Positions 53,401 through 55,809 of a stretch of DNA of 64,000 bases are shown here, one piece after another. The position numbers and the translations under genes are program-made. Under the pieces are notes generated by a model. That model did no database searches and was not told where the DNA came from. It saw only the letters and a program-made list of their open reading frames with translations. Within the stretch, counting starts at the first letter, position 1; every line of letters begins with the position of its first letter. The DNA comes from an uncultured Deinococcaceae bacterium (GTDB lineage Bacteria; Deinococcota; Deinococci; Deinococcales; Deinococcaceae), in the NCBI GenBank assembly GCA_964252075.1, contig CAXULY010000001.1:1-64000 (forward strand). Direction: 5' to 3'.

Positions 53401-54928
53401 TCATGCCGGGGTTCAGCTGCACCTCGTGGAAGAGGTTCTGCACCCACTCGGCGGGCACGCCGTCCACCTCCAGCCGGAAGTGATCCACGGTGCGCCCGGT
53501 GTTCGCGAGCTGCACCTTCAGCAGGCGCGCCTCGCCGGGCTTCAGGGTGATGTCGTTGTCCTCGACGAGCACCCCGATGCGCGACTGCTGCACCACCCGC
53601 TGCGGTGGCTGCAGGCGCAGCCAGAAGGGCTCCACGCGCAGCACGCCGCCGCCTGGCCAGGGGGCGCGCGTGCGCGGTTCGAGCGGCACGCCGTTCAGGC
53701 TGGTGCCGTTCACGGTGTCGAGGTCCTGCACGAACACCGCGCCCTGCTCCACCTCGATGTTCAGGTGGTGGCGGGACACACCCGCGTGCTCCAGCACCAG
53801 GGTGTTGCCGGGCGCCCGCCCGAGCGTGATGGTGCCCTCGCGCAGCGGCTCCACCCGGATGAGGCGCCCGTCCGGCCCGCAGATCTGCACGCGCGGGAAG
53901 GTCGTGCGGTCCCGCAGCGGCTCGATGGGCGGGATGGGCGGCTCGGGGATGTCCGGCAGCACCACCGTGGGGTTCGGGCCCTGCGGCATGAGGCGCGACA
54001 GCACGCCCTGCAGCGCGGACTCCAGTTCGCGCGCGTCGCGGAAGCGGTACTCGGGCGCCTTCGCGAGGCAGCTCAACACGATCTCCTCGAGGTCCTGCGG
54101 GATGTCCACGCGGATCTGCCCGGGCGGGATGGGCGCCACGTGCTGGTGCTTCTCGATGGCGTCCGCGAGGTCGCGCGTCTCGAACGGCACCATGTTCGTG
54201 AGGAGTTCGTACAGGATCACGCCGAGCGCGTAGATGTCGCTGCGCACCTCGCTGCGCACGCCGCGGCACTGCTCGGGCGACATGTACGCGGGCGTCGTGA
54301 CGATCAGGCGGTCGTGCGTGCCATACGTGAAGGCCTGCAGTTCACCCACCCCGAAGTCCGCGACCTGCACGCGGTACGCCTGGCGGCCCAGGATGGCGCG
54401 CGCGGGTTGCAGCAGCAGGTTCTCGGGCTTCAGGTTGCCGTGCATGAGGTTCGCGTCGTGCGCGTACGCGAGCGCGCCCGCCACCTGCCGCGCGAGGTCC
54501 ACGGCGATCAGGAGGTCCACGAACTGCCCCTCGCGCGTGTGCTGCTGCAGGTAATGCCGCGCGGAGCCGCTCTGCGCGAGGGTCATGGTGTAGTGCGCCT
54601 TGTGCTCGCGCTCCACGAGCTCCCCGACGGGCAGGATGTTGCCGTGCGCGAGGCGCCGCCACTTCTCGAAGAGGCGCCGGAACTGCACCATCACCTGCGG
54701 CTGCGCGACGAGTTCGGGGTTCATGACGCGCAGGGCGCCCACCTGCGCCGCGTCGAGGTTCTGCGCGGCGTACACCGTGCCGAGCCACCCCTGCCCGAGC
54801 GTGCGCAGCAGCCGGAAGCCCTCGTACAGGGTGCTGCCGCCGGGCCGGTTGCCGCCCGGCGTGGGGGTGTCGGTGGTCGTGTCGTCCGGGGTGGGCCGCC
54901 CGCCCCGTTCATTCGACGTGTCGGTCAT
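50462..54928 (-). CDS. membrane Ser/Thr kinase-like (pseudokinase) protein with FHA domain and extracytoplasmic Ig-like repeats
   Basis: Hanks-fold motifs LGQGWLGTVY, HGNLKPENLL, ADFG, YMSPEQ and SDIYALG. FHA LGRAPGN...VSRHH...NGT, TM segment PLWALPILAILVIGIVWWLL, about seven ~75-80-aa beta repeats, and PA linkers. Confidence 0.9.
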   Translation of the reverse strand: MTDTSNERGGRPTPDDTTTDTPTPGGNRPGGSTLYEGFRLLRTLGQGWLGTVYAAQNLDAAQVGALRVMNPELVAQPQVMVQFRRLFEKWRRLAHGNILPVGELVEREHKAHYTMTLAQSGSARHYLQQHTREGQFVDLLIAVDLARQVAGALAYAHDANLMHGNLKPENLLLQPARAILGRQAYRVQVADFGVGELQAFTYGTHDRLIVTTPAYMSPEQCRGVRSEVRSDIYALGVILYELLTNMVPFETRDLADAIEKHQHVAPIPPGQIRVDIPQDLEEIVLSCLAKAPEYRFRDARELESALQGVLSRLMPQGPNPTVVLPDIPEPPIPPIEPLRDRTTFPRVQICGPDGRLIRVEPLREGTITLGRAPGNTLVLEHAGVSRHHLNIEVEQGAVFVQDLDTVNGTSLNGVPLEPRTRAPWPGGGVLRVEPFWLRLQPPQRVVQQSRIGVLVEDNDITLKPGEARLLKVQLANTGRTVDHFRLEVDGVPAEWVQNLFHEVQLNPGMTAETTLRVLVPRESQHHAGVYEMKVVARSRENPTEFGFVPMTWTVTEFLNTTVEVSPKRRSAWRRTHYTFKLRNDSNVPITYNPTVKDDEGGVFLQSPWSQINIPASGNLHNIIPVRTIIYNYYMRLREGIGKVRVSEFQRDIVLQPGESYESRMNVRLPIRWIGSPRPRHLHVVAENDRGPGAPANVNLLHLPLMPLWALPILAILVIGIVWWLLQAPTIVTASVTPQNPPVGKPFTLNFETRNTVSVLVKPWNKRVGGGVKKLIIPQGITAPTDVQVIAYGRVKTAQTLMTITPQVPAPVVKSFSVDPQNITSGQTATLRWNVANVKEVTIDPIGTQPAKGELRQKITQDTTFTLRADSGGQAVQKSASVKLLAPGIDLFEVTPAQAAPGQTVTVRWRVRNADSVNLQPIGSVPAQGQQQVKVTGDTTYTLTANVGTQNVTQTASVRLLAPVVELFKVSPENAQVGDPITLSWKVANASSVTIDPIGTVPAQGTRQLTAQQGVVYKLSATNGQQQVETSGAANVSAIPPKVTGFKVTPRKPRTGESVTLSWQTQNATSVTLDGLNGTQSVPNSGSMTVTAPAQNTQLTLTARNAEGTQDAQSATLLVLPPAPAQPAPQPTPAPTPAPKVAQVQPKPAPTPAPAPTPAPVVVQPKPKPKPIPPAPAQVVAFSVSPAQITAGQRVVLRWNVRGAQRVKIFPMNRVYPAQGMTAIAIKKNTVFTVQSVGSGAPAKSSQRVSVLANPSMPPALPPKTAQATPTPAPAPTPAPAPAPEPAPAPAPEPERPTVTPTITSFTASDASVPKNSRVTLTWSVEGAVRVSLSGLGSVEPQGSATRRVTRDADYVLTAIGGGQRVQQTVHVAVSAPTQAASGAEQLSGTWLHPFGRLKLNVKGNEVTGTFVNDRTGDQGKLRGRISGTSGNYNLSANVTVPNKPGEDITFVVAFNDAMNGFYGPYSTRGDRERWCGWREGAPQPSQCQ

Positions 54929-55809
54929 ACGAACCTCACCTCATACTGCACGTGCGCGGGGACGTGCTGCGACACCAGCCGCTGCACGCCCGCGCGCGTC
55001 ATGTCCTCGCCGTCCTCGCCGGGGTCCGGGAGGACCACCGTGAGCGTGAAGGGCCTGCGCGGGTCCTCGATGATCTGCGGCGTGACGCCGCACCCGATCT
55101 CCAGGGCGCGCATCAGGCCGTAGCGGGTGCCGCGCCAGCGCACGAGGTGCATGGCGTCTTTCAGCCACGCGCGCTTGCGGCCCTCCGGCCAGTGCGGGTC
55201 CACCTCCAGCCCGATCCACGCCGCGAACCAGTCCAGCATGCGCTCGGGCGCGGTGGAGGGCGCGAAGTACATGTCGAGGTGGTCCTGGCGGTGCTGCAGC
55301 GGCTCCCAGATGCTCTCGAAGATCATGAGGTAGCGGCCCACGAACTCGGACTCCGTGAACATCGCGGGGAGGTAATCCATGTACGCGCTCGCGCGGCCCT
55401 GCGCGGGCGTGATGGGCAGCGTGGGACGCGCGGGCGTGATGGGCAGCGGCCGGAACTCGATGGGGGTGGGGAGCGCGTCGGGGTGCTCGGGCGGCTCGGG
55501 CGCCTCCTCACCCGGCAGGTACGCCAGCACGTACGGCCCGATCTGCACGATCACGCCCTCGTCCAGCACCATCGGCTGGTGCGGCGTGAGGCGGCGGCCC
55601 GCGAGGTACGTCTCGCCGTTCCCGAGGTCCGTGATCACGAACTGCGCGTCCAGGCGCCGCACCTCCGCGTGCCGGATGGCGATGCTGGGGTGCGGCAGCG
55701 ACAGGCCGTTGTCGGGCGTCCGCCCGATGGAGAGCAGGTTCATGTCCAGGCTGAGCATCTTGACGGTCTCACCCTGGAGCTGCACGAAGAGCTGGTCGGC
55801 CACCCTCAC
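54925..55809 (-). CDS. FHA domain fused to a phage tail protein I-like baseplate wedge domain
   Basis: N-terminal IGRTPDN...RHAEV...ITDL, Pro linker, then YLPAMF...RYLMIFE...APERMLDWFAAWIG...RWRGTRYGL...VPAHV. Confidence 0.85.
   Translation of the reverse strand: MRVADQLFVQLQGETVKMLSLDMNLLSIGRTPDNGLSLPHPSIAIRHAEVRRLDAQFVITDLGNGETYLAGRRLTPHQPMVLDEGVIVQIGPYVLAYLPGEEAPEPPEHPDALPTPIEFRPLPITPARPTLPITPAQGRASAYMDYLPAMFTESEFVGRYLMIFESIWEPLQHRQDHLDMYFAPSTAPERMLDWFAAWIGLEVDPHWPEGRKRAWLKDAMHLVRWRGTRYGLMRALEIGCGVTPQIIEDPRRPFTLTVVLPDPGEDGEDMTRAGVQRLVSQHVPAHVQYEVRFV

Follow-up and report, generated by a model that had tools for sequence, protein, structure and literature searches.

Central to the biology of cytoplasmic contractile injection systems (CIS) is when and where the particles fire. 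In Streptomyces this involves the membrane protein CisA, which, according to PMC12237407, is required for firing and is predicted by modeling to contact Cis11. For the Chloroflexota/Deinococcota lineage, PMC12998442 demonstrates that particles form inside the cells of D. aquatilis, C. chliarophilus, and T. carboxidivorans. In the first two species its cryo-tomograms show them lying free in the cytoplasm, so docking, if it occurs, is not constitutive. According to the paper, Roseiflexus has no close cisA homologue, and, since CisA homologues are absent, the firing or membrane factor of the lineage may differ. Its Table S3 gives the mass-spectrometry results: sheath, one baseplate protein of 75 kDa, and one tail protein of 16 kDa, with zero FHA entries and no protein kinase. 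Neither "FHA" nor "kinase" occurs in the main text of PMC12998442 or PMC12237407, and our literature search turned up no report that connects an FHA domain with an eCIS or cCIS baseplate protein and none tying a pseudokinase to contractile injection systems. For type VI secretion systems (T6SS), PMC13584744 describes a TagE/TagH/pThr-TssL pathway, with pThr-TssL found in Agrobacterium.

We analyzed a stretch of 64,000 nucleotides from an uncultured Deinococcaceae bacterium (assembly GCA_964252075.1, contig CAXULY010000001.1, positions 1 to 64,000), hereafter the window. It contains the following features.

48187..49845, minus strand: VgrG-like spike (Pfam Phage_base_V, E 2.2e-27; Phage_GPD)
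49846..50421, minus strand: CIS tube-family protein (Pfam CIS_tube, E 4.9e-30)
50462..54928, minus strand: 1488-aa bitopic membrane protein (Pfam, motif table, hydrophobicity, AF2)
54925..55809, minus strand: FHA-Cis12 gene, 294 aa, wedge subunit with an N-terminal FHA (ORF, Pfam, AF2, Foldseek)
55510..55809, minus strand: its FHA domain, residues 1-100 (Pfam, AF2, Foldseek, residue alignment)
55390..55509, minus strand: its Pro-rich disordered linker, residues 101-140 (pLDDT, composition)
54928..55389, minus strand: its Tail_P2_I/Cis12 wedge domain, residues 141-294 (Pfam, 9gtp_E, Foldseek 9gtp_A)
55806..57992, minus strand: baseplate J/Cis11-like gene, longest ORF, likely start Met58 at 57821 (Pfam Baseplate_J, E 1.3e-14)
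57827..58246, minus strand: gp25-like sheath initiator, Cis9 (Pfam GPW_gp25, E 2.2e-25)
58396..60450, minus strand: AAA+ ATPase, Cis15-like (Pfam AAA, E 1.9e-24; WHD)
60481..61356, minus strand: cap protein, Pvc16_N, Cis16-like (Pfam, E 3.6e-26)
62034..63620, plus strand: contractile sheath, divergent arm (Pfam Phage_sheath_1/1C)
63700..63999, plus strand: gp19-like tube gene, truncated by the window end (own contig 61000-79000, L082)

By Pfam, the core CIS set is complete (sheath, tube, gp25, baseplate J, Cis12, VgrG, cap, and AAA ATPase), and beyond the window (own contig 61000-79000) the divergent arm continues with another tube gene and an eCIS_core protein of 1643 aa. Cis12 adjoins baseplate J and gp25, an order common to most of the 80 loci we compared. 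A baseplate-J tree that contains D. aquatilis (L008) and T. carboxidivorans (L068) places the window inside the Deinococcus clade, with support of 100. By its genes, the system is a cytoplasmic CIS of clade IId in the Chloroflexota/Deinococcota lineage, and not a phage.

The wedge gene, which begins with GTG, encodes a Cis12/gpI-type subunit to which a flexible, Pro-rich linker of ~40 residues tethers an N-terminal FHA domain. Pfam matches comprise PF00498 (FHA) at residues 27-91 (E 8.3e-12; 45.8 bits, cut-off 20.7) and PF09684 (Tail_P2_I) at residues 173-284 (E 9.6e-13; 48.6 bits, cut-off 20.6). In the AF2 model, residues 1-100 form a beta sandwich (pLDDT 85-94) with nine strands of at least three residues by DSSP, pLDDT is 46-63 over residues 101-140, and the C-terminal domain is modeled at 61-93; proline makes up 13 of 44 residues (30%) in linker positions 99-142. 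Foldseek matches the FHA part to the FHA folds of GarA (6i2r, TMt 0.87), Ki67, and OdhI, with TMt 0.80-0.87 across the three, and the remainder of the protein to 9gtp, a baseplate entry of the S. coelicolor CIS (9gtp_A, E 8.4e-9), and phmmer aligns 9gtp_E to residues 143-266 (E 4.1e-14). An earlier sequence-only reading had proposed this fusion of FHA and P2 gpI-like domains through a Pro-rich linker, with the N-terminal 100 residues folding as an FHA, and Pfam, AF2, and Foldseek bear it out; that reading had not recognized the system as a cytoplasmic CIS of this lineage. It had also claimed 4-nt overlaps with both neighboring genes. Both can be read in the sequence: GTGA at 55806-55809 on the baseplate J side and ATGA at 54925-54928 on the other, where the start ATG of the membrane protein gene overlaps the FHA-Cis12 stop. 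A near-identical database record (identity over 99% of the query) has 292 aa rather than the 294 of our ORF, so the gene caller probably took a GTG two codons downstream; with that start the upstream overlap would vanish.

The fusion is present in at least 122 clusters at 50% identity, their 122 representatives reaching E ≤ 1e-30, from Deinococcota, Chloroflexota, Gemmatimonadota, Acidobacteriota, and other phyla; all 106 database matches contain both PF09684 and PF00498. This conservation rules out mis-assembly and a sequencing artefact, the latter a concern that the sequence-only reading had attached to its own proposal. Species genomes yielded 88 stretches encoding a relative, from which the 80 loci were retained. 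Among 50,697 records of a phage collection, none carried the fusion and one matched weakly through the wedge domain alone; a phage or prophage tail gene was therefore dropped as an explanation. Streptomyces plasmid copies and 9gtp_E align only to residues 128/143-291, that is, without the FHA, and the Cis12 proteins of L076 and L079 have a divergent FHA by Pfam, though tblastn aligned their C-terminal domain only. The usable FHA-less loci number three, and their contrast with FHA-bearing loci is therefore not used as evidence.

Phosphothreonine is bound in FHA domains by a Ser three residues before the His and by a loop Asn (NGT), as in Rad53 FHA1. The window FHA keeps G29, R30, and H47, which are invariant in sets of 30 and of 32 aligned relatives. 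Its canonical Ser is Ala44 (context SIAIRHAE), and its loop reads GNGE-T where the canonical form is GSxNGT, so that the Asn is gone. In our alignment, the pThr-binding Ser is retained in 51 of 57 non-Deinococcus rows and missing in 14 of 15 Deinococcus-clade rows. The domain is not decaying: it is under purifying selection despite the lost Ser and Asn, with dN/dS within Deinococcus of 0.13-0.37 for the FHA, compared with 0.06-0.39 (wedge domain) and 0.39-1.22 (linker). The alignment thus confirms the sequence-only description of a domain with GR and His, a changed Ser position, and no clean NGT. Its suggestion that the domain may be phospho-independent gains support for the Deinococcus lineage from this loss, set against retention in most other lineages, and it also fits a neighboring kinase domain without its catalytic Lys and Asp.

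That neighbor, previously termed a receptor, is indeed a membrane protein, and more precisely a bitopic pseudokinase-FHA-Ig protein (mean pLDDT of the AF2 model, 85.3). In its kinase-like domain (residues 31-313), the VAIK Lys is Arg67 and HRD is HGN (163-165), with DFG kept; there follow a canonical FHA (residues 346-440), two Ig-like domains (451-700), a transmembrane (TM) segment at about residues 703-727 (hydrophobic segment 697-735), and extracellular repeats to the C-terminal end. A single TM after the kinase-FHA-Ig part is found in the window and in most relatives. In all nine aligned Deinococcus rows, the FHA of the membrane protein has GR, SRxH, and a loop Asn; seven of the rows read NG(T/S), and L006 and L008 read N-P-S.

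To quantify adjacency, we considered 67 FHA-bearing loci with at least 1.5 kb of downstream sequence. A kinase/FHA/Ig membrane gene starts within 300 nt downstream in 60 of these, lies within 3.5 kb in four more, and is missing in three; FHA-bearing loci without the kinase gene carry an MFS gene (L004), a glycosyltransferase (L060), or a PNP-nSTAND1-WD40 protein (L076). Typically the neighbor consists of a Hanks kinase, an FHA, two Ig-like domains, a TM helix, and an extracellular part. A 4-nt overlap between a start codon and the stop of Cis12 occurs in 36 of the 60 loci, an upper bound given that the nearest start was picked. The pair is intact where baseplate J sits elsewhere, as in D. psychrotolerans and in C. 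chliarophilus (Calidithermus, L058), where Cis12 and kinase are paired as in the window. In L069, Cis12 has no FHA and the kinase gene is still adjacent.

Across 64 relatives the kinase is intact in 40. The wedge FHA Ser is replaced by Ala in 19 of the 64 rows, and the kinase is degenerate in every one; an intact kinase accompanies 40 of the 45 rows keeping Ser, and no row combines Ala with an intact kinase. Degenerate kinases beside a retained Ser occur in four lineages, L043, L051, L058, and L059. The full Arg/Ser/NG(T) test is failed by 14 of the 40 intact-kinase rows, always (14/14) on Asn, and since this loop residue varies beside intact kinases, we limit the co-degeneration argument to Ser. 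A raw Fisher test gives p = 6e-5 with relatedness ignored; on the baseplate-J tree there are two independent Ser losses against five kinase degenerations, and an independent-pairs test (p = 1) has no power. Judged by their residues, kinase and wedge FHA both look canonical in most lineages, and in mesophilic Deinococcus, including the window, both writer (Lys, Asp) and reader (Ser, Asn) appear to be without phospho-chemistry. Profile scans found no PP2C phosphatase among the window ORFs scanned or the 14 downstream ORFs of five intact-kinase loci. In the alignment, from which the variable, unalignable linkers drop out, we found no convincing candidate for a Ser/Thr column conserved with intact kinases and lost in Deinococcus. 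One Ser column is mostly Ala in Deinococcus but lies inside the kinase-domain fold.

We tentatively favor a reading in which the FHA tethers the baseplate to the membrane protein, through a contact that would have been phospho-dependent ancestrally, like PpkA-Fha of the T6SS, and would be phospho-independent here. We infer docking, which the sequence-only reading had suggested together with a possible trigger role, from the conserved adjacency, and binding partner, phospho-dependence, and effect on firing are likewise proposals. If the wedge stoichiometry is as in Streptomyces, each baseplate would carry six pendant FHA modules, which would act as its adaptors for the cytoplasmic part of the downstream membrane protein. 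This protein would link an otherwise free-floating particle both to the membrane and to a signal from outside, and thereby set the place and time of firing. Because kinase and wedge FHA look competent in most lineages, the link there would probably run through phosphothreonine made by the neighboring kinase, following the T6SS logic of PpkA/TagE, Fha/TagH, and TssL. With writer and reader both degenerate in mesophilic Deinococcus, the contact there, and in the window, would probably be phospho-independent, with gating elsewhere. Candidate gates are the membrane protein's own canonical FHA, which could respond to one of the genome's six further kinases, and a conformational change of the pseudokinase. 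A more ambitious version, possible though doubtful, would make the FHA-wedge and membrane Hanks kinase the missing docking/firing switch: an outside signal activates the kinase, phosphothreonine captures the six FHAs, and the particle fires at the membrane, mesophilic Deinococcus having converted this switch to a pseudokinase and a pThr-blind FHA that binds without phosphate. If true, control of a contractile machine through threonine phosphorylation would have arisen independently a second time, here as part of the baseplate itself.

A different role, which we consider unlikely, is that of a scaffold for assembly or recycling, in which the wedge FHA would recruit another CIS component, such as the Cis15-like AAA+ ATPase, or serve as an assembly checkpoint by reading phosphorylation that unrelated kinases have made. 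This would resemble TagH/Fha1, which promotes T6SS assembly and contacts ClpV. The ATPase gene lies in the same operon arm, the window's genome has six other Pkinase matches, and the FHA-Cis12 of L076 is paired with a STAND NTPase, not a kinase; moreover, PMC13584744 tabulates ClpV as a Pseudomonas TagH partner. Such a scaffold, however, leaves unexplained both the near-universal, often translationally coupled adjacency of the kinase gene and the joint loss of phospho-residues from kinase and FHA.

We attach an equally low likelihood to a reversed polarity, whereby the neighboring kinase would phosphorylate a Thr in the Cis12 linker for binding by the membrane protein's FHA, and the wedge FHA would only recruit the kinase. 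The linker is Pro/Thr-rich with TP motifs, about half of 30 aligned relatives share a P-T-[FY]-P-like stretch, and the canonical state of the membrane protein's FHA in all nine Deinococcus rows would suit such a reader; phosphorylation of TagH by TagE in P. aeruginosa, reported in PMC13584744, is a precedent. Against this, Gemmatimonadota membrane proteins have no FHA of their own and still accompany a wedge FHA and an intact kinase, the linker evolves fast (dN/dS 0.39-1.22), and the window kinase is without catalytic residues.

Slightly less likely again is that the FHA decorates the baseplate periphery structurally, as a phospho-independent fold like that of T3SS SctD/YscD and without a part in signaling, beside an independent regulator or fiber substitute. 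The loss of pThr residues in the Deinococcus lineage would agree with this, as would a weak Yop-YscD_cpl (PF16697) match (E 0.0067; 17.1 bits, under the cut-off of 33.2) and precomputed PF16697 matches in most relatives, but most lineages have a fully canonical pThr pocket, and a disordered 40-residue tether speaks against a fixed structural role. That the FHA is a cargo adaptor holding effectors at the baseplate is hardly credible: large putative effector genes (an eCIS_core giant and a nuclease giant) do flank the cluster, but they differ among relatives, whereas the FHA and its kinase neighbor are constant.

A wedge-fused signaling domain with a linked membrane kinase gene across several phyla provides a concrete candidate for firing control. 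Intact kinases with canonical FHAs and pseudokinases with degenerate FHAs form a natural, ready-made comparison, and particles have already been shown in D. aquatilis, D. grandis, C. chliarophilus, and T. carboxidivorans.

Among known systems, the cytoplasmic domain of SctD (YscD/PrgH) is an FHA fold in a secretion machine that is not known to involve phosphothreonine chemistry; this FHA-like domain (PF16697) sits on a membrane ring, as opposed to the tail baseplate here. Among solved FHA domains, those of the GarA/OdhI type come nearest to the wedge FHA in sequence and fold (E 3.4e-7 to 4e-5; TMt 0.8-0.87) and have Hanks kinase partners, but they are small, free metabolic regulators with a canonical Ser/Asn pocket, unlike the wedge FHA with its Ala44, missing Asn, and fusion to a structural protein. 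The Streptomyces cis cluster is not known to encode a kinase. CisA is a cis-cluster membrane protein whose cytoplasmic part is thought to touch the baseplate, the role we propose for the kinase-FHA-Ig protein; it is reported to contact Cis11, whereas the proposed partner here is the Cis12 FHA. S. coelicolor Cis12 (PDB 9gtp; PMC12237407) has the same wedge domain in a 190-aa version without FHA, and the Streptomyces CIS, of the same clade IId according to PMC12998442, shares the neighbors gp25, baseplate J, VgrG, cap, and ATPase.

In the threonine-phosphorylation pathway of the T6SS (PpkA/TagE, Fha1/TagH, PppA/TagG), too, a contractile-machine cluster encodes an FHA reader and a membrane-bound Hanks kinase bearing an outside domain, and the FHA there connects a membrane component with assembly or firing. 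According to PMC13584744, some T6SS have tagH without the kinase, parallel to the pseudokinase state here. The T6SS FHA is a free accessory protein, whereas ours is fused to a core wedge subunit of an eCIS/cCIS-type machine (Pvc16_N cap, AAA ATPase, phage-type sheath domains), and a general Pfam scan found no TssJLM families among the ORFs scanned. The active Hanks kinase of the TagE pathway has a counterpart with intact catalytic residues in 40 of 64 relatives but not in the window (Arg67, HGN). The FHA-Cis12/kinase pair, while not classed as the T6SS threonine-phosphorylation pathway, may work by analogy with it.

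The FHA-Cis12 gene lies in a minus-strand contractile injection system (CIS) cluster with the order cap (Pvc16_N), AAA+ ATPase, gp25, baseplate J, FHA-Cis12, a 1,488-aa membrane protein, CIS tube, and VgrG-like spike. The sheath gene occupies a divergent plus-strand arm, which continues past the window end with two gp19-type tube genes and then an eCIS_core protein.

54925..55809, minus strand: FHA-Cis12 ORF, GTG start, 294 aa
50462..54928, minus strand: neighboring membrane protein, 1,488 aa
65368-70299 of the same contig (C1; 4369-9300 of locus L082), plus strand: 1,643-aa eCIS_core (PF13699) protein, just beyond the window, after the sheath and two tube genes

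The window makes up the first 64 kb of a 410-kb contig in a 5.83-Mb genome. Its baseplate J shares 80% identity with the one from a Deinococcus MAG and falls within a Deinococcus clade with support of 100 in our tree. D. psychrotolerans (L081) encodes a 1,831-aa DUF4157 protein at the place matching the eCIS_core protein, and both genomes carry a vWA-domain protein near the CIS cluster (window 36900-38978, minus strand; L081 11847-13883). Converging on the CIS operon end is a 2,208-aa protein (39029-45655, plus strand) with Endonuclea_NS_2 at residues 1380-1459, followed by small ORFs (45659-48171, plus strand) matching HEAT_2, DUF6966, and, in three cases, nothing. The arrangement resembles that of a giant nuclease toxin accompanied by immunity-type genes, and the large protein may be CIS cargo.

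That a single ORF fuses an FHA domain to a tail/baseplate domain, as the sequence-only reading had it, was confirmed. Pfam places FHA at residues 27-91 (E 8.3e-12) and Tail_P2_I at residues 173-284 (E 9.6e-13), both well over the curated cut-offs. An AF2 model built from an alignment of 30 relatives shows an all-beta sandwich over residues 1-100 (pLDDT 85-94) and a helical/beta C-terminal domain (pLDDT 61-93). Between them lies the anticipated Pro-rich linker, with 30% proline over residues 99-142 and pLDDT of 46-63 over residues 101-140. Using Foldseek, we matched the N-terminal part to FHA domains (GarA 6i2r, TMt 0.87; OdhI; Ki67) and the second part to the Streptomyces coelicolor CIS baseplate (9gtp_A, E 8.4e-9); phmmer aligned the 190-aa chain 9gtp_E to residues 143-266 (E 4.1e-14). 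The proposed 4-nt overlaps can be read from the sequence, as GTGA between the baseplate J stop and the FHA-Cis12 start and as ATGA between the FHA-Cis12 stop and the next start. The true start may be a GTG two codons downstream, because the databases contain a 292-aa protein that is identical across 99% of the query. The motif reading was also right: G29-R30 and H47 are kept, Ala44 replaces the Ser three residues ahead of the His, and the 'GSxNGT' loop has shrunk to 'GNGE-T'.

The fusion recurs in relatives. A word-indexed protein search returned 106 matches, all 106 with both Pfam domains, from Deinococcus, Chloroflexota (Roseiflexaceae, Oscillochloris, Ktedonobacteria, Thermomicrobia), and Gemmatimonadota, and an exhaustive search of 1.84 billion cluster representatives returned 122 at E<=1e-30. 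Species genomes contributed 88 stretches encoding a relative, of which 80 loci were kept, and added Acidobacteriota, Methylomirabilota, Rhodothermaceae, Armatimonadota, Meiothermus, and Calidithermus. Among plasmid records, the fusion is present on five Deinococcus megaplasmids, and 21 Streptomyces records match only residues 128-291; none of 50,697 phage records contains it. Megaplasmids of 390-730 kb often carry the Deinococcus CIS cluster (D. psychrotolerans, D. actinosclerus, D. taeanensis, D. grandis, D. aquaticus, D. altitudinis). On D. grandis ATCC 43672 plasmid pDEGR-1 as deposited (L083, about 5974-7009), a change of reading frame within the Pro-rich linker separates the FHA part from the Cis12 part, and annotation covers only the C-terminal 154 aa; either a sequencing error or a natural split could account for this break. 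CIS sheaths have been reported from a D. grandis strain.

The neighboring membrane protein combines a protein-kinase fold (residues 31-313), a canonical FHA domain of its own (residues 346-440; GR, SRHH, NGT), two Ig-like domains (residues 451-700), one hydrophobic helix (about residues 703-727), and ~760 residues of extracellular repeats that have no Pfam match. In its kinase domain, the glycine loop and DFG are intact; the VAIK Lys is Arg (residue 67) and HRD reads HGN (residues 163-165). With neither the ATP-anchoring Lys nor the catalytic Asp present, we read this domain as a predicted pseudokinase. A Thr/Pro-rich N-terminal extension of ~27 residues (residues 1-30; window 54839-54928, minus strand) is absent from all 31 aligned relatives, and residues 5-30 are disordered in the model (pLDDT < 50). 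The kinase-FHA linker (residues 314-345; window 53894-53989, minus strand) has no secondary structure, yet pLDDT of 72-87. It contains 'P-T-V-V-L-P', kept in Deinococcus relatives and partly in Calidithermus, which may be a docked Thr-x-x-Leu motif for an FHA.

To assess synteny, the window's proteins were run by tblastn against the 80 loci. We scored the 67 whose Cis12 bears an FHA and is followed by at least 1.5 kb of sequence, leaving aside nine that were too short and one cut at its 5' end; Pfam places FHA domains in the L076 and L079 Cis12 proteins. In 60 of the 67 loci, a kinase/FHA/Ig gene begins no more than 300 nt downstream; in four more it lies within 3.5 kb, and three (L004, L060, L076) lack it. 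The start codon of this gene overlaps the Cis12 stop by 4 nt in at most 36 of the 60, an upper bound because our script takes the start nearest to the stop. In a Chloroflexales subgroup (L011, L019, L025, L033, L042), the next gene encodes FHA, Ig, and TM segments without a kinase, and a degenerate kinase gene follows at a distance of 3.7-5.6 kb. Cis12 and the kinase gene are still adjacent in D. psychrotolerans, where baseplate J is encoded on the opposite strand. The usable FHA-less loci numbered only three, too few for a contrast with the FHA-bearing ones.

Several loci hold other genes in this region. A second CIS cluster of Oscillochloris encodes a divergent FHA-Cis12 (L076 8583-9512) followed by a PNP_UDP_1 - nSTAND1 - WD40 protein (9891-12788), with no kinase gene there; this protein may be an alternative partner of the wedge FHA. 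An acidobacterial locus has a 156-aa Cis12 lacking FHA (L075 9989-10459) and, in the slot after it, a 679-aa protein without a Pfam match (10456-12495) whose start overlaps Cis12 by 4 nt. Three Chloroflexota loci carry large convergent Peptidase_C39_2 genes just past the kinase gene (L024 14548-17964, L017 14859-18764, L048 8106-12164, all minus strand), one also with SLT transglycosylase and HYR repeats.

We compared residues in an alignment of 72 wedge proteins. All 72 keep the FHA Arg, and 71 keep the His (Gln in L067). Ala replaces Ser in every Deinococcus-clade row except L004 (14 of 15) and in six of the other 57 (five Chloroflexales and Kouleothrix). The kinase could also be scored for 64 rows, intact meaning that the Lys, the catalytic Asp and Asn, and the DFG Asp are present.

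Wedge FHA Ser and kinase state
Ser kept (45 rows): kinase intact 40, degenerate 5
Ser to Ala (19 rows): kinase intact 0, degenerate 19

The five Ser-keeping rows with a degenerate kinase are L043, L051, L058 (C. chliarophilus), L059, and the broken L031. On a baseplate J tree of 70 rows, built quickly under LG+G4, we counted changes over the 55 bearing both traits, the other 15 having a kinase that was broken or could not be scored. This gave two Ser losses and five kinase degenerations; an independent-pairs test had no power (p = 1). With two losses shared by both, three or four confined to the kinase, and none confined to the FHA, the pattern is that expected if the FHA reads what the kinase writes, and is suggestive rather than proof of co-loss. 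The loop Asn is too variable to serve as a marker, even beside intact kinases, 14 of which accompany a wedge FHA missing the NG(T/S/I/A) pattern. Across nine pairs within Deinococcus, the FHA has a dN/dS of 0.13-0.37, the wedge domain one of 0.06-0.39, and the linker one of 0.39-1.22, and the loop after GR ('GRTPDNGL') is almost identical from Deinococcus to Chloroflexales. By these sequence measures, the wedge FHA in Deinococcus is still in use.

The counterparts of gpI/Cis12 are T4 gp7 and T6SS TssG. This wedge subunit joins fibers in phages and, in the T6SS, joins the membrane complex through TssK; the neighbor's slot is the one in which eCIS clusters encode the tail fiber. Given a flexibly tethered FHA at the wedge position and an adjacent membrane kinase gene, the FHA is most simply an adaptor that would link the baseplate to the membrane protein by putative binding. 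Rival readings make it an assembly scaffold, a participant in signaling of reversed substrate polarity, a structural decoration, or a cargo adaptor. Under the membrane-adaptor reading, the link would be phospho-dependent in intact-kinase lineages and phospho-independent in the Deinococcus of the window. The sequence-only interpretation of a possibly phospho-independent docking module is partly supported, phospho-independence fitting the loss of the wedge FHA Ser and Asn here and of the neighbor's kinase Lys and Asp. Particles are described as unattached in the cytoplasm of D. aquatilis and C. chliarophilus (PMC12998442), so any contact cannot be constitutive and some gate remains. One candidate gate is the neighbor's own canonical FHA, which could read one of the six further kinases that the genome encodes; another is a change in the conformation of the pseudokinase.

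The same source reports CIS particles from Roseiflexus, T. carboxidivorans, C. chliarophilus, D. aquatilis, and D. grandis, places them in clade IId beside Streptomyces cytoplasmic CIS, and states that CisA-dependent firing 'may differ' in this lineage, close cisA homologues being absent (PMC12998442). 'FHA', 'kinase', and 'Cis12' do not occur in its main text, and its Table S3 has no FHA entry and phosphoglycerate kinase as its sole kinase. PMC12237407 describes a Streptomyces wedge of two Cis11 and one Cis12 and firing that requires CisA, predicted to touch Cis11; 'FHA' and 'kinase' are absent from its main text. Literature searches on FHA with eCIS, Afp12, Cis12, or Tail_P2_I, and on contractile injection with threonine kinase or pseudokinase, returned nothing on an FHA-Cis12 fusion, which, as far as these searches reach, is undescribed. 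The FHA-Cis12/kinase pair bears directly on the question of how firing is controlled in CIS without close cisA homologues. For the T6SS, PMC13584744 sets out a control logic of TagE/PpkA, TagH/Fha, and TagG/PppA, a contact between pThr-TssL and TagH in Agrobacterium, and species that retain tagH but lack the kinase. The pair described here is a variant on two themes already known, the CIS wedge subunit and the control of a contractile machine by kinase and FHA.
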